NCBI GenBank assembly: GCA_030603395.1
Contig: JAUVXX010000004.1
Location: forward strand, 3,597 to 67,596
Direction of reading: 5' to 3'
DNA: 64,000 bases
From: a bacterium
GTDB lineage: Bacteria; Patescibacteriota; Minisyncoccia; Minisyncoccales; CG1-02-41-26
Translations under genes and position numbers: made by a program
Part shown: positions 28,950 through 39,211 of the stretch, piece after piece
How positions within the stretch are numbered: the first letter of the stretch is position 1
How the letters are laid out: each line of letters begins with the position of its first letter
The notes under the pieces: model-generated
What the model was told of the DNA's origin: nothing
Seen by the model: only the letters and a program-made list of their open reading frames with translations
The model's database searches: none

Positions 28950-30371
28950 ATGGTCAAGGGTCTTACAATTTCTGACATTCATCAGGGTTTGCGAAAGAAA
29001 GAATTTTCAGCCCAGGAATTAGCCCAGAGTTATTTTAAAAAAATAAATTCCCTGGATGAAAAATTGGGGGCTTTTTTGGAAATTACCCAAAACGAGGCAT
29101 TGTCACAAGCTAAAAGAGTGGATGAATTAATTTCTCAAGGAAAAAAAGTTTCTTTGATGACTGGAATACCCATGGCTATTAAAGATAATATTTTGGTCAA
29201 GGATGTAAAATGCACAGCCGCCTCAAAAATCCTTGAGGAATATCTGGCTCCCTATGAGGCAACTTCGGTTAAGAAGTTAAGAGGAGAGGGTGCTGTTTTT
29301 TTGGGTAAAACCAATCTGGATGAGTTTGGCATGGGAGCCTCAACCGAAAATTCAGCCTTCAAAAAGACGCGCAATCCTCACGACCCATCTCGAGTGCCCG
29401 GCGGCTCCTCGGGGGGCTCGGCGGTGGCGGTGGCGGCTGACGAGTCTTGCTGTGCTTTGGGTTCTGATACTGGTGGTTCGGTCCGTCAGCCAGCTGCCTT
29501 TTGTGGAGTAGTTGGACTGAAACCAACCTACGGAGCTGTTTCTCGCTACGGTTTAATAGCTTTCGCTTCTTCCCTCGACCAAATAGGTCCGATAGCAAAG
29601 AATGTGGAAGATTGTGAGATTGTTTTTAATGCTATTAAAGGAAAAGACCCTCTTGATTCAACTTCGGTTGAATCAAAATTTTCAATTTCCCATTTTCAAT
29701 TTTCAAACCCAAAAATAGGGGTTCCTAAAGAATATTTCGGAGAGGGGATTGAGCCGGGCGTAGAGAAAATTATCAAAGAAACCATTAAAAAAGTAGAAAA
29801 AGAAGGTGCTAAAATTGAAGAAATTTCTCTGCCTCACACCAAATATGCTTTAGCTTGCTATTATATCATCGCCACTTCCGAAGCAAGCGCCAATTTGGCA
29901 AGGTACGACGGAATAAAATATGGGTTGTCAAAGGATGATGAGCAAAAATCAGACCTTTTAGATGTTTATCTTAAAACAAGAGAAGAGGGATTTGGCCCGG
30001 AAGTTAAAAGAAGAATAATGCTTGGCACCTACACCTTATCGGCTGGCTATTACGAGGCCTATTATCTGAGAGCTCAAAAAGTGAGAACTTTAATCAAGCA
30101 GGATTTTGAGAAAGCTTTTCAAAAAGTGGATGTTATCTTCACCCCGGTCTCTCCTTTTGCTGCTTTCAAAATCGGCGAGAAAGTTAAAGACCCTCTGGCC
30201 ATGTATCTTTCAGATGTTTTTACTGCCTCGGTAAATTTGGCAGGCCTGCCAGCCCTTTCTCTGCCTTGCGGCAAGGTTCGCAAATTGCCGGTAGGGCTTC
30301 AAATAATTGGCAGACCGTTCCGAGAATCAGAAATTTTCCAGGTTGGCAAATTCGTCGAAAAAATAGTTTAA
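28950..30371 (+). CDS. gatA: Glu/Asp-tRNA amidotransferase subunit A
   Basis: Amidase signature [13 protein letters not shown]. Confidence 0.9.
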
Positions 30372-30383
30372 GCAACTAATAAC

Positions 30384-30947
30384 ATGCCCCCAGAAGCTCC
30401 CTCAGGGACAATTGATATCAGACAACTTATCCAGGAAGTTAAAGAAGCTTTCCAGTTTCTAATTTCTTCTCAATTTCAAGAGAGGATTCTTATTCTTAAA
30501 ATAATTTTTATGGTCGTTTCTGTTTTGTTTTTTTTGGCTCTTTTGTATCTTCTTTCAAAAAGCAGTTATCTCGCAGATGCCTACTTTGATGACATGGGAG
30601 ACCTCTCGGCTTTTCGTGAGTTTGGCCAGAAAAAAATAGTTAAGAGATGGACCAAAATTAAAAAGCGTTTGGAAAGAGGTTCTGGGGCCCAACAAAAACT
30701 TAGTTTAATTGAAGCGTTGCAAATGTTTGATGGGGTCTTGGTCAGAGCAGGATACGGAGGGGAAAATTTAGATGAGAGATTGGAAAAACTGACTGAAAAA
30801 GATATGACTAATCTTGAATCAGTACGAGGGGCTCTCCAGACCTGCCAAGATATTGCCCGCGATCCTGATTACCGATTGTCTCGAGAAAGAGCTGAGGAGA
30901 TTTTGAATATTTTTGAGAAAGCCTTCACTGACTTAGAGGTATTTTAG
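30384..30947 (+). CDS. Hypothetical membrane protein
   Basis: 187-aa ORF with one TM segment (IIFMVVSVLFFLALLYLL). Confidence 0.35.
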   Translation: MPPEAPSGTIDIRQLIQEVKEAFQFLISSQFQERILILKIIFMVVSVLFFLALLYLLSKSSYLADAYFDDMGDLSAFREFGQKKIVKRWTKIKKRLERGSGAQQKLSLIEALQMFDGVLVRAGYGGENLDERLEKLTEKDMTNLESVRGALQTCQDIARDPDYRLSRERAEEILNIFEKAFTDLEVF

Positions 30948-30984
30948 GGGTTGAATTTCCTCAGAGTTTAGTATAGGATAGACT

Positions 30985-31055
30985 CGCGGGGTGGAGAAGT
31001 AGTATCTTGCGAGGCCCATAACCTCGAGACGTCAGTGCAATTCTGGCCCCCGCAA
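30985..31055 (+). tRNA. Initiator-like tRNA-Met (CAU) with atypical D and T loops
   Basis: CGCGGGG...CCCCGCA-A acceptor with a C1:A72 mismatch, as in bacterial tRNA-fMet. Anticodon loop is CCCAUAA. The D-loop lacks GG and the T-loop reads TGCAATT. Confidence 0.55.
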
Positions 31056-31088
31056 CAGGAAACATTTTTCGTATAGCGAAAAATGCAC

Positions 31089-31224
31089 AGGAGGGGTCGG
31101 GAGGATTGGGTATCCTCCCGTGTAGGAAAACAGGCTTTCGCCGAAGGCGAAAACGTTAGAAACCGAGGGTGTCTAAGGAGCGGTGTTAGCGCACTCGCTC
31201 AAGGCGAGTGTCGCGTGCCGCGAC
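31089..31224 (+). ncRNA. Unclassified structured RNA motif, copy 1
   Basis: Shares five conserved blocks and two covarying helices with 39529-39640. It abuts the 5' end of the next tRNA. Confidence 0.5.
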
Positions 31225-31297
31225 GCCGGTGTAGCTCAGTGGTAGAGCAGAGTCTTCATAAGGCTAAGGTCGTTGGGTTCAAATCCCACCACCGGCA
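31225..31297 (+). tRNA. tRNA with CAU anticodon (elongator Met or Ile2)
   Basis: GCCGGTG/CACCGGC acceptor, TAGCTCAGTGGTAGAGC D-arm, TTCATAA anticodon loop and GGTTCAAATCC T-arm. Confidence 0.8.
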
Positions 31298-31300
31298 CAT

Positions 31301-31376
31301 GGTCGCGTAGTGTAGCCCGGTCAAACACATCTCCTTGTCACGGAGAAGATCACGGGTTCAAATCCCGTCGCGACCG
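31301..31376 (+). tRNA. tRNA-Asp (GUC)
   Basis: GGTCGCG/CGCGACC acceptor, CTCC-TTGTCAC-GGAG anticodon arm and GGGTTCAAATCCC T-arm. Confidence 0.85.
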
Positions 31377-31402
31377 CAAAAGTTTTCAAGCTCATTTTGG
31401 GG

Positions 31403-31431
31403 TTGACTTTTTTGTTTGGGACTGATAAAAA
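31403..31431 (+). promoter_or_regulatory. Island promoter, copy 1 (GGGGTTGACTT-N15-TAAAAAGAA)
   Basis: TTGACT, a 17-nt spacer, then TAAAAA. The architecture is nearly identical to 33393-33421. Confidence 0.5.
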
Positions 31432-31530
31432 GAAAGTTAGAACCTAAGTGAGTTCATTAAGATTTAAATAGGGAAAGTGAAGATAAAGAAAGAGAAGAAA
31501 TGATTAATATTAAATACGGAGGTGAATTAA

Positions 31531-31896
31531 ATGGGATTAGACATCGGGTTAGATAGCGAAGACAAGCAGCCAAAACGTGGACCATGTCCGTTTTTTGGCA
31601 TAGAAGAAGGATCATTTTCTTGCGAAATTAGGGTGAAAGTTTGCAATCATGATGACAATGTTTCTTCTAGGTGTACAAAGTACCGGATATTAGGGAATAG
31701 ATTAATGCATGAGGTACGGGCAAGATGTGTAGTCTGTCAGAGGGTAGAATTTGAAAATGAATGGCTCAAGCCCGAAGAAATTATCATCCCTAACAGCAAC
31801 AATCCCATACCCTTAGATATCTGGGAGAAATTTGGAGATTTACCAAATGTCTTTTGCCTAGATCCAAAATGTCGGCCAAAAAAGGAGGGGGAATGA
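31531..31896 (+). CDS. Cys-rich small protein (121 aa, 8 Cys) coupled to the radical SAM gene
   Basis: GGAGGTG Shine-Dalgarno sequence. The stop lies 1 nt before the next ATG. CVVC and CLDPKC motifs suggest metal binding. Confidence 0.45.
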   Translation: MGLDIGLDSEDKQPKRGPCPFFGIEEGSFSCEIRVKVCNHDDNVSSRCTKYRILGNRLMHEVRARCVVCQRVEFENEWLKPEEIIIPNSNNPIPLDIWEKFGDLPNVFCLDPKCRPKKEGE

Positions 31897-31897
31897 A

Positions 31898-33109
31898 ATG
31901 ACTACAAAGAAGGCGAGATCAATGTCTAAGAAGTTTTTAGGCAAAACAGTGCAGTTGTATACCACTAGTCTGTGTAAAATGAACTGTCCACATTGCAGTT
32001 CAAGATTACAGATGATACCAGACATGATACTAGCGACATTCAAGCACGTAGTGAAAGACGTAGAAGTAAATGGTGCTCGGCGCATAGAGCTGTTCGCGAA
32101 TGATCCGCTCTTGCACCCCGAAATTGAGGAGCAAGTCGAGGTGCTTAATAAAAGCGGACTTGGCTACGCGATCCTAACCGTCGGTGCCAGCCCGAGAGAT
32201 TCAAGGGATTCAAGTGTAAGGGAACGTTTCTTTCGCGTAATGAGAAAGATTAATCGAGAAAGAGGTGCTTTTGTATTTTCGGTAGATCTCACTGAGGAGA
32301 CTGCCAAAAAGATCCTGACTAAAGGAGGCACGGACGAGAATACGTCGTATGCTTTCAAGGCGAATACATTTTGGGAGTTAGCCCCTCTACTCCAGATGGA
32401 GCAGATCCCTGTGCGCATCAACGTTGTCATTAGTCGATACAATATTGATGAAGTAGTGACAATCATGTGCCGAGCAACAGAAATGGGTTTCGCCGCATCG
32501 TTTTGTTTTGTACAAAACACCGACGCGAAGTTCGATGAACTTTCGCGTAAGGGGCTTACGCCAAAGCTCGAACAGGGCTTCCGTAACTACTTGCACTCCT
32601 CTGGTCTTCTGAGCACTTCCGAAGTTGACCAGATTATTGCGGATACTCACAAGGTTGTAGCAGACAACGAACTGGAAGATAAGAAAAACACAAGCGGCAA
32701 CGTGATTGAACAAAGTCCGTTCAACGCATTCCGTGGCAACGACCGTAGCGAGGGTAGAATTTCCATCATACAACTTGCAAAGCTACGGCGTGATATCCTT
32801 GCCCTCAAAAACAAGTTGAAAGAGAAGATACTTCCGAGTGATGATTTCATTTACGAAATTGGTAATCGTGGTTTCGGATGTATCAAGCTTCTCAAACAAA
32901 ATCAGTTTCCACAAATGAAAATTGGGTCGGAAGGTCAGATGATTTTTTGCTGTGATCTACATGACCCCTGCACCAGCAGGTATTCTATCAATGAGATGGA
33001 TGAAGACAAAAGGAGGGACTCATTTCTTGAAATGATTCGAACCAACCCGTACATTTGGACCTGTCTCTATTTCAATCCGTGTGACTTCAGTGTGAACCAT
33101 GTTGTCTAA
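31898..33109 (+). CDS. Radical SAM enzyme with a C-terminal Cys cluster (possible SPASM/twitch-like auxiliary domain)
   Basis: CKMNCPHC is a CX3CX2C motif. NDPLLHPEI resembles the GGEPLL box. C-terminal cysteines include GCIKL, FCCDLHDPC and WTCLYFNPC. Confidence 0.7.
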   Translation: MTTKKARSMSKKFLGKTVQLYTTSLCKMNCPHCSSRLQMIPDMILATFKHVVKDVEVNGARRIELFANDPLLHPEIEEQVEVLNKSGLGYAILTVGASPRDSRDSSVRERFFRVMRKINRERGAFVFSVDLTEETAKKILTKGGTDENTSYAFKANTFWELAPLLQMEQIPVRINVVISRYNIDEVVTIMCRATEMGFAASFCFVQNTDAKFDELSRKGLTPKLEQGFRNYLHSSGLLSTSEVDQIIADTHKVVADNELEDKKNTSGNVIEQSPFNAFRGNDRSEGRISIIQLAKLRRDILALKNKLKEKILPSDDFIYEIGNRGFGCIKLLKQNQFPQMKIGSEGQMIFCCDLHDPCTSRYSINEMDEDKRRDSFLEMIRTNPYIWTCLYFNPCDFSVNHVV

Positions 33110-33268
33110 GACGCTGGTAGGTGATGCGGGAGAGAGAAATATTTCCGTGGAAACTCACTCGCCAATTTCACGAAGATTCGGTATATATTCAGTGATGCCC
33201 AATGGTTGCACCTCAAATATCTACTTGAAAAGACAAACAGAAATAAGAAGTAAAATGTACAGTCATGA

Positions 33269-33311
33269 CCCGCTGGAGAATCTCATATGAGATCCCAGCG
33301 GGACATTTTTA
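33269..33311 (+). terminator. Rho-independent terminator of the radical SAM unit
   Basis: CCCGCTGG...CCAGCGGG around an internal ATCTCATATGAGAT palindrome, followed by a T-run. Confidence 0.7.
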
Positions 33312-33329
33312 TTAAAATGTTTTTACTTG

Positions 33330-33393
33330 ACCCCGTTAGAAGTCCGAATCAAAGATTCGGCAGTCGCCTCAGGCGACTTACTTTTAACGGGGT
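33330..33393 (+). other. Three-way-junction-capable element overlapping the -35 of the second island promoter
   Basis: 14-bp closing helix ACCCCGTTAGAAGT / ACTTTTAACGGGGT encloses CCGAATC-AAA-GATTCGG and GTCGCC-TCA-GGCGAC. Confidence 0.5.
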
Positions 33394-33421
33394 TGACTTC
33401 CTTGTTTTAACGTGGTAAAAA
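33393..33421 (+). promoter_or_regulatory. Island promoter, copy 2
   Basis: TTGACT, a 17-nt spacer, then TAAAAA, with the same flanks as copy 1. Confidence 0.5.
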
Positions 33422-33456
33422 GAAGAATCAAACTAAAAGAGGAGGTGCTCGTTAAA

Positions 33457-34050
33457 ATGTTAATAATTCATCGTGTCATTTCTCCCGAGGAAGCAAAGAG
33501 GATAAGAAGCATATGGGAACGAATGGGGGCGGTTAAAGCAGAGAGTAAGAGAGAGGCAATCTGTATTGAAAGAGAAGGTAAGCTCCTTGTCTTTGTTGAT
33601 GAAACCAACAATGGTCAAAACTGCCTTCCCCAAGAAAAGAGAGCTAAGCTTTTTGATTTGGAGAGACTTAATAAATGGCCAGAGACTTATGAGGTGAGAT
33701 ACATTCAACCCAAAGTCACACATCTTTGTGGGGCGAGTAAGGTCTGGAATGAGCTACGGGTAGAAGCAGCTGAGGAAGCAATCAGTATTGATGCTTCACT
33801 CAGAACAGACGGACCTTACTGGGCAAGAATGGTGAAGGAAAGTTTCTTGACTGGAACAGTGCCTAAAATAATTGATAAGCATGAATCAATGGGGGACTGC
33901 AGCTGTGAGAAGGGAGAGAAAATAAGAGAGATAGAAGAACTACTTAAATCATTAGAAGAGATTGACGTCGAGTCTCACCAGATTGATAATCTCTATACTG
34001 GTTTAGAGCGGCTACTCGACCTTAAAGTGCCAGAGCTGCTGACTATCTGA
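33457..34050 (+). CDS. Hypothetical protein (197 aa)
   Basis: ATG with GAGGAGGTG upstream. The track start at 33412 (GTG) lies inside the promoter. No family was recognised. Confidence 0.4.
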   Translation: MLIIHRVISPEEAKRIRSIWERMGAVKAESKREAICIEREGKLLVFVDETNNGQNCLPQEKRAKLFDLERLNKWPETYEVRYIQPKVTHLCGASKVWNELRVEAAEEAISIDASLRTDGPYWARMVKESFLTGTVPKIIDKHESMGDCSCEKGEKIREIEELLKSLEEIDVESHQIDNLYTGLERLLDLKVPELLTI

Positions 34051-34090
34051 ACTACAGGTTGGGAAAAGTAGATTCCAAAAGAGTATCATG

Positions 34091-34127
34091 GCCTATCGCG
34101 AGAACATTCTCGCGATAGGTCCTTTTT
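34091..34127 (+). terminator. Rho-independent terminator closing the island
   Basis: CCTATCGCGAGA...TCTCGCGATAGG followed by TTTTT. Confidence 0.75.
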
Positions 34128-34191
34128 GTTGGATTTGTGGATAAATCGGGCTTGAATTTGGGCTGAATTTTAGGTAAAATAAAGGAATAAT

Positions 34192-35175
34192 ATGGATCTG
34201 AAAAAGCTGAAAATTGAGGCAGAAAAAGGAGTAAAAAAGGCATCAAATTTGAAAGAATTGGACAAGATTTTTAAGAAATATTTGGGTAAAAAAGGTGAGA
34301 TTGCCCGAGTTTTTAATTCCTTGAAAAAACTTTCAAAGAACGAGAAAAAGAAAAAGGGCAAGGAGGCCAATCTGGCCAAAATTGGCATTGAGAGAATAAT
34401 CAAAGAGAAATCCAAGAAACTCAAGGAAGAGACAAGGAAACTTAAACTCAAAAAAGAAAGGATTGACGTAACGAGACCTGGCAAAAAAATAGAGGTAGGG
34501 CACTTACACCCCTTAACTTTGGTTCAAAGAGAGGTTGAAGAGATATTTGAATCGATGGGATTTTCGGTTATTCAGGGTCCTGAAGTTGAAACAGAGTGGT
34601 ACAATTTTGACGCTTTAAACATTCCTAAAGACCATCCAGCCAGAGATATCTGGGACACTTTTTGGCTCAAAAACCAGAGGCTTTTGCTGCGCACCCATAC
34701 CTCACCGGTTCAAATTCATTATATGGAAAAACACCACCCGCCCTTGAGAATTATTGTACCGGGAAGATGTTTCCGGCACGAAGCAACCGATGCCTCACAT
34801 GGCGTTCAATTCTATCAGCTTGAGGGACTAATGGTGGATAAAAACATTTCCGTCGCCAATTTTAAGGCCGTCATTGAGGAATTTTTAAAAAGATTCTATA
34901 AAGCAAAAGTTGAGATTCAATTAAGACCGAGTTATTTCCCTTTCACTGAACCAAGCTTTGAGATAGATGTCAGGAAGGGAAAAGGGAAATGGGTTGAGAT
35001 GATGGGGGCTGGTATGGTTCATCCCAATGTTTTAAAAGCAGCCAAAATCAATCCCAAAAACTGGCAGGGGTTTGCCTTTGGGGTGGGCTTAGATAGATTG
35101 GCTATGGTCAGGTATAAGATTGAAGACATTCGCTTATTTTACAGCGGCGACCTGCGCTTTCTAAAACAATTCTAA
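34192..35175 (+). CDS. pheS: Phenylalanyl-tRNA synthetase alpha subunit
   Basis: Class II core (FRHEATDASH, FPFTEPS, GAGMVHPNV). Confidence 0.9.
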   Translation: MDLKKLKIEAEKGVKKASNLKELDKIFKKYLGKKGEIARVFNSLKKLSKNEKKKKGKEANLAKIGIERIIKEKSKKLKEETRKLKLKKERIDVTRPGKKIEVGHLHPLTLVQREVEEIFESMGFSVIQGPEVETEWYNFDALNIPKDHPARDIWDTFWLKNQRLLLRTHTSPVQIHYMEKHHPPLRIIVPGRCFRHEATDASHGVQFYQLEGLMVDKNISVANFKAVIEEFLKRFYKAKVEIQLRPSYFPFTEPSFEIDVRKGKGKWVEMMGAGMVHPNVLKAAKINPKNWQGFAFGVGLDRLAMVRYKIEDIRLFYSGDLRFLKQF

Positions 35176-35178
35176 TTT

Positions 35179-37224
35179 ATGTTGTTTTCTTACAATTGGT
35201 TGAAGGATTATCTAAAAGGCAAAACGCCAACTCCTCAAAAATTGGCAGAGATTTTGACCAGGCACAGCTTTGAGGTGGAGAGCGTTGTTAAAAAAGGCAA
35301 TGATTTTGTCTTGGATATTGATGTTCTGTCCAACCGGGCACCCGATTGCCTATCGCATTTGGGAATTGCTCGGGAAATAGCAGCTATTCTTAACTCCGAA
35401 CTCCAATCTCCAGATTCTAAGTTCAAAGAAGACAAAAAATTAAAAGCCAGAAATTTTGTTAGCATAGAAGTTAAAAACAAAGCTGATTGTCCCCGTTACA
35501 GCGCCAAAGTAATTTCAGGAGTGAGAGTGAAATCCGCGCCCGGATGGATTCAAGAAAGATTGAGGGCTTGCGGGCTTCAGCCGATTAATAATATCGTTGA
35601 CATCACCAATTACGTAATGTTGGAAACCGGCCAGCCAATCCATGCTTTTGACCTTGATAAAGTTGGCAAGAAAATTGTGGTCAGAAGAGCCAGGAAGGGA
35701 GAGAGAATAAAAGCTTTGGACGATAAAACTTATAACTTAGATGGAGATATCTTGGTGATAGCTGACTCAAAAAGACCCATAGCTATTGCTGGCATCAAAG
35801 GGGGGGAGAGAACCGGCATTGATTCTAAAACAAAGAAGATTGTTGTTGAAGCCGCCAATTTCAACCAGAAAGTGGTTCGTCAGGGTTCCAAGAAATTAAA
35901 ACTAAGAACTGATGCTTCTTGGCGATTTGAAAATGGCCTCACACCCGAACTGGTTGACCTCGCCCAGGAGAGAGTTGCCTTTTTGATTCAAAAGATAGCC
36001 GAAGGGAAAGTAGCTCAAGGATTGGTTGATTTTTACCCAAAAAAGATTCTTCCCAAGAAAATAAACCTTGATTTAAATTATGTTGAGAGATTACTGGGAA
36101 TTAAAGTTTCAAAAAATAAAGTAAAGAATATCCTTCAAAAATTAGGATTTAAAGTGACAGAGACCCGACCTCCTCAACTGAAAGTGGAGGTGCCGACCAG
36201 GAGATTGGACATTTCAATCCAAGAAGATTTAATTGAGGAGATAGGGAGGATTATTGGCTTTCAAAACATTCCCTCAATTTTTCCTCAAGCCGCTTTAATT
36301 TCTCCCAAGAAAAATGAAGAGCTTTTTTGGCAAAGAAATATCAAAAACATTTTAAAAGAAGCAGGCTTCTCCGAAGTTTATAATTACTCTTTTATGGGAG
36401 ATAAGGAAAAGGGGATTTTCGGCCGGAGAAAGCATAACCTGATAGAATTGGCCAATCCGATGAGTTCCTTTAATAAGTATTTGAGGCCAAGCTTGATTTC
36501 CAATTTGTTAAGAAATATTAAAGACAACTTAAAATATTTTGACCAGATAAAACTTTTTGAACTTGGAAAAGTTTTTATCAAAAAACAAAACTTATGGGAA
36601 AGGAAAATGTTGACAGGGATTTTAACAAGAGAGGGCATCAAAGATGAGGGTTTTTATGAATTGAAAGGGATAGTTGATTCTTTACTGGCTAAATTGGGCA
36701 TAGCTGATGTCTGGTATGATGATTACCGCCAGACCCCCGAGTACTCAGAAGCAGAAATCTGGCATCCTCAAAAATCAGCCGAGATTAAAAGCAACGGAGA
36801 GGAAATTGGCTTTTTGGGAGAAATTCACCCTAAGGTCACAGAAATCCTGGACATCAAAGAAAGAGTGTTTGTTTTTGATGTCAGCTTTGAGAAATTACTG
36901 AAACTTGCCTCAGAAGAGCAGGTATATCAACCTATTTCTGCTTACCCAGCGGCCATTCGTGACTTAGCTATTTTGGTTCCCCAAGGAACGAAAGTGGTTG
37001 AGATTTTAAACAAAATGAATATCGGGGGAGGGAAATTGGTTCGAGATATTGACCTTTTTGATGTTTACAGTGGCGAGGGAATTCCTCAGGGTAAAGAAAA
37101 TTTTGCTTTTCACATTATTTACCAAGCTCGAGATAGAACTTTATCTTCTAAAGAAATTGATAAAGTTCACCAAAGAATAACTGAAACTCTGGAGGAGAAT
37201 CCGGCCTGGGAAGTAAGAAGATAA
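35179..37224 (+). CDS. pheT: Phenylalanyl-tRNA synthetase beta subunit (short, 681 aa)
   Basis: MLFSYNWLKDYL N-terminus with B3/4, B5 and FDX-ACB-like regions. Confidence 0.9.
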   Translation: MLFSYNWLKDYLKGKTPTPQKLAEILTRHSFEVESVVKKGNDFVLDIDVLSNRAPDCLSHLGIAREIAAILNSELQSPDSKFKEDKKLKARNFVSIEVKNKADCPRYSAKVISGVRVKSAPGWIQERLRACGLQPINNIVDITNYVMLETGQPIHAFDLDKVGKKIVVRRARKGERIKALDDKTYNLDGDILVIADSKRPIAIAGIKGGERTGIDSKTKKIVVEAANFNQKVVRQGSKKLKLRTDASWRFENGLTPELVDLAQERVAFLIQKIAEGKVAQGLVDFYPKKILPKKINLDLNYVERLLGIKVSKNKVKNILQKLGFKVTETRPPQLKVEVPTRRLDISIQEDLIEEIGRIIGFQNIPSIFPQAALISPKKNEELFWQRNIKNILKEAGFSEVYNYSFMGDKEKGIFGRRKHNLIELANPMSSFNKYLRPSLISNLLRNIKDNLKYFDQIKLFELGKVFIKKQNLWERKMLTGILTREGIKDEGFYELKGIVDSLLAKLGIADVWYDDYRQTPEYSEAEIWHPQKSAEIKSNGEEIGFLGEIHPKVTEILDIKERVFVFDVSFEKLLKLASEEQVYQPISAYPAAIRDLAILVPQGTKVVEILNKMNIGGGKLVRDIDLFDVYSGEGIPQGKENFAFHIIYQARDRTLSSKEIDKVHQRITETLEENPAWEVRR

Positions 37225-37234
37225 AAATTTCTAA

Positions 37235-39211
<1,977 letters not shown>

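Follow-up and report, generated by a model that had tools for sequence, protein, structure and literature searches.

The DNA analysed here is a 64,000-nucleotide stretch of contig JAUVXX010000004.1 (assembly GCA_030603395.1) from a member of the Patescibacteriota, which we refer to in its entirety as the window. Between a cluster of three tRNA genes and the pheST genes it encodes a 121-residue Cys-rich protein, a 403-residue radical S-adenosylmethionine (rSAM) enzyme and a 197-residue protein (Table 1). Our analysis shows that this region holds an undescribed module of the rSAM enzyme and a uracil phosphoribosyltransferase (UPRTase)-like enzyme, in a copy from which part has been deleted. An earlier note on the same DNA had instead suggested a GC-rich acquired island with a possible role in defence or in the making of ribosomally synthesized and post-translationally modified peptides (RiPPs), a reading that proved largely wrong. 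Its account of the layout held up: we recovered the 121-residue protein with 8 Cys, the 1-nt gap between it and the open reading frame (ORF) of the rSAM enzyme with its CKMNCPHC motif, the tRNA-Asp gene at the edge of the region after two tRNA-Met genes, two transcription units that are each closed by a hairpin and T-run, and a duplicated promoter, present as two 36-mers that are 78% identical.

The 403-residue protein is a radical SAM superfamily member, as indicated by its CxxxCxxC motif and by the superposition of its model on rSAM enzymes. The CKMNCPHC cysteines (C26, C30 and C33) are at least 90% conserved in the family alignment. PF04055 scores 27.8 bits (E 3e-6) against a gathering score of 29.5, and most relatives carry a precomputed PF04055 assignment; a Pfam scan at E ≤ 1 returned PF04055 alone and no SPASM domain (PF13186), and no SPASM, RiPP recognition element (RRE) or peptide-maturase family of Pfam or NCBIfam matched. 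The best NCBIfam match is viperin_w_prok (NF038283), at 29.1 bits against a cut-off of 180 over residues 17–192, and the PADLOC pVip model scores 38.7 bits (E 1.8e-10) on the rSAM core only. The enzyme falls into no well-known housekeeping family, in agreement with the earlier note. Among 5.8 billion proteins, a word-indexed search identified 42 relatives; those few with named sources are assigned to the Patescibacteria group, Candidatus Pacebacteria or an unclassified “bacterium”. When 1.84 billion representatives were searched exhaustively with a profile, 16 full-length members scored at least 455 bits, followed by a match at 145 bits and then by generic rSAM cores at 60–70 bits. The family is small, sharply bounded, belongs to Patescibacteria and has no curated family. 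A profile scan of viral contigs returned zero relatives, and the scan of genome contigs one true locus only. One relative that is 52% identical to the window enzyme and carries PF04055 (P0015) is named in its source as a “peptidoglycan/xylan/chitin deacetylase (PgdA/CDA1 family)”, probably a misannotation given its sequence.

The AlphaFold2 (AF2) model of the rSAM enzyme has a pLDDT of 92.6. Its nearest folds in Foldseek are viperin (5vsl), PqqE, SkfB and MoaA (E ~1e-7), with SuiB, BlsE and DesII also found; the superposition on viperin gives template modelling (TM) scores of 0.46 on the query and 0.66 on the target at 13% identity. Weak profile scores and distant folds together place the family as a distinct clade near viperin and the SPASM/twitch enzymes but a member of neither. 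With viperin and pVip (NF038283, PADLOC PDLC02903), which supply its best profile and fold matches, the family shares the partial-barrel rSAM core, the CxxxCxxC motif and a nucleotide-related context. Viperins, at about 260–300 residues, end in an NTP-binding extension and lack an auxiliary Cys cluster. The window protein, at 403 residues, has an additional C-terminal domain of ~130 residues with five conserved Cys.

Beyond the motif cysteines, C203, C328, C351, C352, C389 and C395 are conserved in the family, as are several basic residues, and these five to six extra Cys would plausibly suffice for an auxiliary cluster. The earlier note had likened the C-terminal cysteines to those of SPASM/twitch domains; the cluster itself (C328, C351, C352, C389 and C395) stands, whereas the SPASM signatures PF13186 and CX2CX5CX3C are both absent. 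Like the SPASM/twitch enzymes, among them the oxidative decarboxylases and dehydrogenases AhbD, MftC, BtrN and DesII, as well as BlsE, the family has a Cys-rich C-terminal extension that may hold an auxiliary [4Fe-4S] cluster, and PqqE, AhbD, SkfB, SuiB, BlsE and DesII are among its weak profile or fold matches. By contrast, its cysteine spacing is GC(328)...FCC(351/352)D...C(389)x5C(395), and the substrate that we propose below is a pyrimidine ring.

To define the genomic context of the family we considered 17 distinct rSAM loci, counting separately two fusion proteins known as protein sequence only (P0009 and P0052). The rSAM gene lies directly beside a gene of the PF14681 UPRTase family in 13 of the 17 (L001, L002, L004, L005, L010–L014, L016, L018, L019 and L020). 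In a further locus, L015, both are combined in one protein (P0008), bringing adjacent or fused pairs to 14 of 17, and P0009 and P0052 are additional rSAM-UPRTase-like fusions. The earlier note had taken the Cys-rich protein as the partner of the rSAM enzyme; the partner conserved across the family is the UPRTase-like enzyme. The partners resemble the uracil phosphoribosyltransferase Upp (PF14681, TIGR01091) in that they score 48–98 bits with PF14681 (gathering score 27), keep the phosphoribosyl pyrophosphate (PRPP) motif DPMLATG and the PGLGDAG(xK) segment of true Upps, and match the Upp structure 3dmp (E 6e-20). They differ from Upp in falling below both equivalog cut-offs (NF001097, at most 102 vs 114; TIGR01091, at most 98 vs 208), in their frequent fusion to the rSAM enzyme and in a distinct N-terminus of ~100 residues, as the Upp profile aligns only over the C-terminal two-thirds. 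In P0052, which combines the rSAM C-terminus with a UPRTase-like domain, Trp replaces conserved Gly throughout (PWLWDFWDKW vs PGLGDxGDKx). This pattern suggests that P0052 stems from a lineage reading UGA as Gly (code 25) and was translated with the wrong table, in which case the fusion would also occur in Gracilibacteria- or Absconditabacteria-like organisms.

In the window, the last ~44 codons of such a partner follow directly after the rSAM stop codon, a remnant that the earlier note overlooked. It reads LVGDAGE, then, after a +2 (AG) frameshift, KYFRGNSLANFTKIRYIFSDAQWLHLKYLLEKTN, and contains stop codons. tblastn aligned the L020 partner to it with an E value of 4.8e-9 and the L004 and L005 partners with 1e-5. 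It thus falls short of a full-length phosphoribosyltransferase (PRTase) with a PRPP-binding loop. The downstream ORF was considered as a divergent UPRTase and rejected, as no similarity was found. L019, the closest relative, shares 83% DNA identity with the window across the rSAM gene and at the end of this gene reads ...GTTGTCTACGATGCC... into YDASVAKV-stop, followed by an intact partner gene, while the window reads ...GTTGTCTA|AGACGCTGGTAGGTGAT... at the same place. From the comparison with L019 and L020, the TAA stop of the window rSAM gene was apparently created at the junction of a ~0.7-kb deletion. The junction comparison indicates that this deletion removed the transferase gene save for its last ~44 codons. 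With its partner deleted and its own gene intact, the window rSAM enzyme has either been orphaned recently or is served by a transferase encoded elsewhere.

A sister contig, L025, reveals what else can occupy this site. blastn aligned it to the window with 87–89% nucleotide identity over 29470–31055, 31225–31888, 33265–33331 and 33393–38079, and the tRNAs, promoter P1, the Cys-rich gene, terminator 1, promoter P2, the 197-residue gene and pheST, being aligned in L025, form a common backbone. Where the window carries the rSAM gene and the transferase remnant, L025 carries pyrD, a 177-residue gene, a pyrE-like gene and a pyrF-like gene. Its pyrD scores 360 bits with NF005574 (cut-off 269) and overlaps the Cys-rich gene by 4 nt; the pyrE-like and pyrF-like genes score 88 and 100 bits. 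A kinship of the 177-residue protein with the HD/YfbR-like neighbours of the rSAM-UPRTase pair was considered and dismissed, no relation being found, and its lone match, to MESH1/HDDC3, was non-significant (E 0.24).

A second exchange is seen at a different locus, where L008, L009 and L021 share with L023 flanks that are 92–94% identical (a 263-residue gene, tmk and a DUF5667 gene). L008 has the order epimerase-rSAM-Cys-rich and L023 the order pyrK-pyrD-Cys-rich-61aa-pyrF, with pyrF present in L023 only. The Cys-rich genes of L008/L009/L021 and L023 are 82% identical to each other, and the Cys-rich proteins of this locus are only 33–41% identical to that of the window. In L004 (Pacebacteria) and L015, too, rSAM(+UPRTase) stands between gatC-gatA-187aa and pheS-pheT-gyrB, in L015 as a fusion. 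Since these are more distant relatives, the pair is old at the gatA...pheS slot. The rSAM/UPRTase module and PyrD(+PyrK)/PyrE/PyrF are thus alike in occupying the same slot in sister genomes, beside the same Cys-rich accessory gene and, in other genomes, downstream of a dihydroorotase. They are unlike in composition, a flavoenzyme, an orotate phosphoribosyltransferase and an orotidine monophosphate decarboxylase standing against an rSAM enzyme and a uracil-type PRTase, with no kinship in sequence or fold.

Both kinds of cassette also carry nonsense codons. In L021 (position 5174) and L022 (4998), two independent samples, a TAA replaces the invariant Q206 codon of the rSAM gene; in L023 (1168) and L024 (320), again two independent samples, a TGA stands at codon 156 of pyrD. 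Both cassette types are therefore being inactivated or lost in related lineages and appear dispensable at times. An alternative genetic code as the cause of the split genes in L021 and L023 was rejected, because only one TAA or TGA occurs in each and the other genes are not affected. Synonymous divergence (dS) between the window and L025 is ~0.12 for the 187-residue and Cys-rich genes and 0.54–0.56 for the flanking gatA and pheS (window 30384–31896; L025 918–2274), an unevenness that suggests recent recombination over a tract that stops at the cassette boundary. In L025 (7112–9187) pheT is called as two ORFs of 98 and 564 residues; the window pheT (35179–37224) is intact and encodes 681 residues.

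The Cys-rich protein is part of the shared flank and lies outside the swapped cassette. Its 8 Cys (residues 19, 31, 38, 48, 66, 69, 109 and 114), in a pattern that includes CxxC...CxxxxC, are all conserved in a family of only 4 clusters at 90% identity among 5.8 billion proteins. As the earlier note had it, this gene is linked to the rSAM gene, the two being adjacent in two different gene orders, but its association is wider: it always stands beside either rSAM (window, L008/L009, L021/L022) or pyrD (L023/L024, L025), and 14 of the 17 rSAM loci, each with the transferase, have no Cys-rich neighbour. Because it accompanies either enzyme, we regard the protein as an accessory of the dihydroorotate-oxidising step and not as a RiPP precursor. 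It is most likely metal-binding and probably serves as a small redox or regulatory subunit, that is, an electron carrier or a regulatory Zn/Fe protein; a rubredoxin-like or Zn-ribbon label would rest on CxxC/CPxC spacing alone. A PDB profile search gave no match, and the AF2 model (pLDDT 45.5) is unreliable and too poor for a fold search. In L008 (1874–3820; also in L021/L022), genes for an Rrf2 regulator, a cysteine desulfurase and NifU-type Fe-S assembly lie upstream of the rSAM/Cys-rich pair, from which they are separated by one epimerase gene (L008 3835–4761).

Further links to pyrimidines come from other rSAM loci. In L002, rSAM-UPRTase is immediately preceded, on the same strand, by a gene for a full-length class II dihydroorotase (TIGR00856, E 8.7e-72). 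In L010 the immediate upstream neighbour is a divergently oriented gene for a dihydroorotase of the other class (TIGR00857, E 4e-55). The two dihydroorotases are non-orthologous. Other neighbours from nucleotide metabolism are tmk, NT5C, HD/YfbR-like, ribonucleotide reductase (RNR) and deoxynucleoside kinase (dNK)-like genes. Three independent lines of context, namely the PRTase partner or fusion, the two swaps and the two dihydroorotases, tie the rSAM enzyme to the segment of the pathway from dihydroorotate to uridine monophosphate (UMP). The nearest folds include rSAM enzymes that act on nucleotides or nucleosides (viperin, MoaA and BlsE), a point in favour of the same assignment. We consider it an even call, judged from gene context, that the rSAM and UPRTase-like enzymes take dihydroorotate to UMP, replacing PyrD(+PyrK)/PyrE/PyrF.

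The mechanism that we consider most likely, and most economical, can be outlined. The 5ʹ-deoxyadenosyl radical would take a hydrogen from C5 of dihydroorotate, the C6 carboxylate would be lost as CO2, and one electron would pass to the C-terminal auxiliary Fe-S cluster, giving uracil. This would be an oxidative decarboxylation of the type carried out by HemN and AhbD, which are oxidative decarboxylases, and such chemistry, in which CO2 or an electron is lost after hydrogen abstraction, is that of the SPASM/twitch enzymes. The partner would then convert uracil and PRPP into UMP. Decarboxylation to uracil would account for pyrF accompanying pyrD rather than rSAM. In one variant the transferase would act first and the rSAM enzyme on the resulting nucleotide; in another the rSAM enzyme would merely dehydrogenate dihydroorotate to orotate. 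Stated in full, and offered only tentatively, our proposal is that some Patescibacteria possess a flavin-independent two-enzyme shunt in which the rSAM enzyme oxidatively decarboxylates dihydroorotate (or its ribotide) to the uracil level and a dedicated UPRTase-family enzyme adds the ribose phosphate, so that PyrD, PyrE and PyrF are bypassed, with the 8-Cys protein serving the oxidation step in both routes.

Several observations weigh against this assignment. The substrate and product are drawn from gene context alone, and that context, including whatever bears on pyrB, pyrC, pyrD, pyrE and pyrF, spans up to 17 kb per locus. A dihydroorotase gene is adjacent in just 2 of the 17 loci, and L008 and L009 keep the rSAM gene with no adjacent transferase. 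The best profile matches are viperins, and the kinase neighbours in L005 would also fit viperin-like systems. Patescibacteria are generally held to salvage nucleotides, so that a role in salvage rather than in de novo synthesis is possible. Selection on the whole pathway is weak in these lineages, since nonsense codons are present in several copies of both cassettes, and the window module, which has no transferase, may be inactive.

This last point leads to the alternative that best survives, namely that the window rSAM gene is a decaying relic, functionless since the loss of the transferase, in which damage has not yet accumulated. It concerns the present state of the window and is compatible with the dihydroorotate-to-UMP assignment for the family. 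The deleted partner with its frameshifted remnant is in keeping with such decay, as are the nonsense mutations in rSAM (L021/L022) and pyrD (L023/L024), which show both cassettes being lost. However, the ORF is unbroken, the window protein deviates in just 1 of the 98 conserved columns (family median, 4), and the ratio of nonsynonymous to synonymous divergence (dN/dS) relative to L019 is 0.17; the value for gatA in the window–L025 comparison is 0.155. With 5 of 7 outgroups the relative rates are symmetrical, giving no sign of faster evolution in the orphaned gene; an excess of window-specific changes is seen with P0003 (23:11) and P0004 (39:8), the latter being discounted because P0004 shares near-identical segments with P0002. 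L008 and L009, moreover, also retain an intact rSAM gene with no adjacent transferase. These data indicate an undamaged window gene shaped by purifying selection, and we regard the relic state as a possibility that is less than probable.

A second alternative is that the module serves pyrimidine salvage or modification with no involvement of dihydroorotate: the rSAM enzyme would make uracil from dihydrouracil, a 5-substituted uracil or a pseudouridine-derived base, or would modify UMP, and the adjacency to pyr genes would reflect a shared theme. Several features would suit such a role: the base and PRPP motifs of the partner, a uracil-type PRTase, are Upp-like; tmk, NT5C, HD/YfbR-like and RNR genes are among the neighbours; dihydropyrimidinase and allantoinase models also match the L010 amidohydrolase, with lower scores; and Patescibacteria are known salvagers. 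Against it stand two independent in situ replacements by pyrD(+pyrK) and pyrF, and the full-length class II dihydroorotase in the same operon orientation in L002, which points specifically to dihydroorotate. We consider salvage unlikely.

A viperin-like antiviral function, in which the rSAM enzyme would make a chain-terminating nucleotide analogue (e.g., 3ʹ-deoxy-3ʹ,4ʹ-didehydro-UTP, ddhUTP) and the partner would supply UMP, appears improbable. Kinases supply nucleotides for some prokaryotic viperins, and thymidylate-kinase-like genes flank the pair in L005, an AbiEii module adjoins it in L004, and pVip (PADLOC, 38.7 bits, E 1.8e-10), viperin_w_prok (29 bits) and viperin 5vsl (E 1e-7) are the best profile and fold matches. 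But a score of 29 against a cut-off of 180 reflects the generic rSAM core only (residues 17–193), the TM scores reach no more than 0.66, the Cys-rich C-terminal domain of ~130 residues is lacking in viperins, and the module holds a conserved position among housekeeping genes. The UPRTase-like partner or fusion also sets the family apart from viperins, and its interchange with pyrD/E/F and the adjacent dihydroorotases would be left unexplained. The anti-phage module suggested in the earlier note is likewise not borne out by PADLOC, which gave the weak pVip match to the rSAM core and nothing for the 121-residue protein or the 212-residue form of the downstream protein. In L004 (8422–9316) a DUF6922/AbiEii toxin-antitoxin-like pair stands between the UPRTase-like gene and pheS, and in L020 (2314–6282) an RNR with an intein and HNH domain stands beside the pair; for L005, considered as a possible phage, the PHROGs matches are to kinase and methyltransferase families only, with no structural genes.

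Finally, the proposal that the rSAM enzyme modifies the 121-residue protein as a RiPP or protein-maturation system, for which the 1-nt gap between the genes, their adjacency in two gene orders and the SPASM/twitch maturases SkfB, SuiB and PqqE among the fold matches could be cited, is very improbable, since the same rare Cys-rich family occurs where there is no rSAM gene, translationally coupled to pyrD in L025 and inside pyrK-pyrD-x-pyrF in L023, while 14 of 17 rSAM loci have the transferase and no Cys-rich neighbour, as in the promoter-rSAM-UPRTase order of L019, and no SPASM, RRE or peptide-maturase match was found.

Table 1 Features of the window between the tRNA cluster and pheS, with the evidence for each.
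Feature	Position	Strand	Evidence and remarks
tRNA-Met, tRNA-Met, tRNA-Asp cluster	30985-31056, 31225-31298, 31301-31377	+	ARAGORN, Rfam; 87-89% identity with L025
169-bp hairpin-rich, GC-rich insertion between tRNA-Met genes	31056-31224	.	Absent from L025, where the tRNAs abut
Promoter-like P1 (TTGACT, 17 nt, TAAAAA)	31399-31434	+	Predicted; repeat family D1; also in L019
121-aa Cys-rich protein	31531-31896	+	ORF call; conserved flank, outside the swapped cassette
Variable cassette, rSAM + ΨUPRTase	31889-33264	+	blastn vs L025: homology stops at 31888, resumes at 33265
403-aa rSAM enzyme, gene intact	31898-33109	+	ORF call, Pfam, NCBIfam, PADLOC, alignment, AF2
UPRTase-like pseudogene remnant, last ~44 codons	33113-33241	+	tblastn, frame reading, junction comparison
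Terminator-like hairpin + T-run closing unit 1	33268-33310	+	Fold -24.4 kcal/mol, z -5.7
61-bp palindromic insertion resembling a miniature inverted-repeat transposable element (MITE)	33327-33397	.	5-bp TTGAC duplication; three-way junction -40 kcal/mol, z -8.45
Promoter-like P2, second 36-mer copy	33389-33424	+	Predicted; conserved in L025
197-aa orphan protein, flank gene	33457-34050	+	AGGAGG upstream; lineage-restricted
Intrinsic-terminator-like site closing unit 2, upstream of pheS	34090-34131	+	14-bp stem, 8 GC pairs, T-run

The remaining features of the region belong to its shared backbone or are small insertions. The promoter core pattern occurs at 0 mismatches at the P1 and P2 sites only, and the L019 rSAM gene is likewise preceded by a P1-type sequence. 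In the predicted terminator of unit 1 the hairpin stem (33268–33302) is followed by TTTTTATT; the same sequence follows pyrF in L025, with 88% identity to L025 5273–5340. In that of unit 2 the hairpin (34090–34121) is followed by CTTTTTGTTG. A palindromic element of 61 bp with a perfect stem sits exactly in the –35 box of P2. It is present as a single copy in the window and absent from L025, a comparison in which the TTGAC duplication is visible, and it looks like a miniature mobile element. The 169-bp insertion between the tRNA-Met genes, specific to the window relative to L025, forms four or five predicted hairpins (–50.5 kcal/mol, z –3.6, for 31060–31200) and has no Rfam match. An Rfam search of 30900–34300 found nothing beyond the three tRNAs.

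The 197-residue protein has no match in Pfam, NCBIfam, PADLOC or the PDB, consistent with the earlier note, which recognised no family, and only 3 homologues among 5.8 billion proteins. Its L025 orthologue is 65–66% identical. The dN/dS of the gene is 0.57, and it is a fast-evolving flank gene that is unrelated to the cassette. A 212-residue form starting at a GTG was rejected, as the ATG at 33457 is preceded by AGGAGG and only the 197-residue form is present in the protein collection.

The data also do not support a horizontally acquired, tRNA-linked island. The sharp compositional contrast claimed for 31377–34130 amounts to a GC content of 0.423 relative to a mean of 0.410 for the whole stretch (windowed GC, z = 0.58); 24% of windows of this size have an equal or higher GC content, values of 0.47–0.50 are reached in several 1-kb bins elsewhere, and GC at third codon positions (GC3) is mildly raised (0.49) in the rSAM gene only. 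The ORF list and repeat scan contained neither an integrase ORF nor direct repeats flanking the region, as the earlier note had itself observed, and the Cys-rich and 197-residue genes are flanks shared with L025. With typical GC, no island hallmarks and conserved flanks, a genomic island at the tRNA gene was rejected, and the tRNA cluster (30985–31377) is a conserved flank and not an integration site. The bounds of the supposed island likewise shrink to the one segment that differs from L025 in the blastn comparison, which represents a replacement and not an insertion. The idea of exchange thus survives for this segment, swapped between close relatives; the flank genes were not part of an acquired unit.

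For the window, then, the annotation is corrected: what had been read as a foreign GC island, RiPP cluster or defence locus is a partly deleted copy of the rSAM/UPRTase-like module. The wider meaning depends on the dihydroorotate-to-UMP assignment. To our knowledge, the PyrD, PyrE and PyrF steps of de novo pyrimidine synthesis are considered near-universal. The literature that we searched describes no radical SAM alternative to them and no link of rSAM enzymes with dihydroorotate or UPRTase. If the assignment is correct, the module would add a new reaction to central metabolism, and the occurrence of both cassettes at one site in sister genomes would represent a clean non-orthologous displacement caught in the act. 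Members of the candidate phyla radiation (CPR)/Patescibacteria are usually scored as pyrimidine auxotrophs when pyrD, pyrE and pyrF are missing, and the finding would change how their nucleotide autonomy is inferred from genomes.

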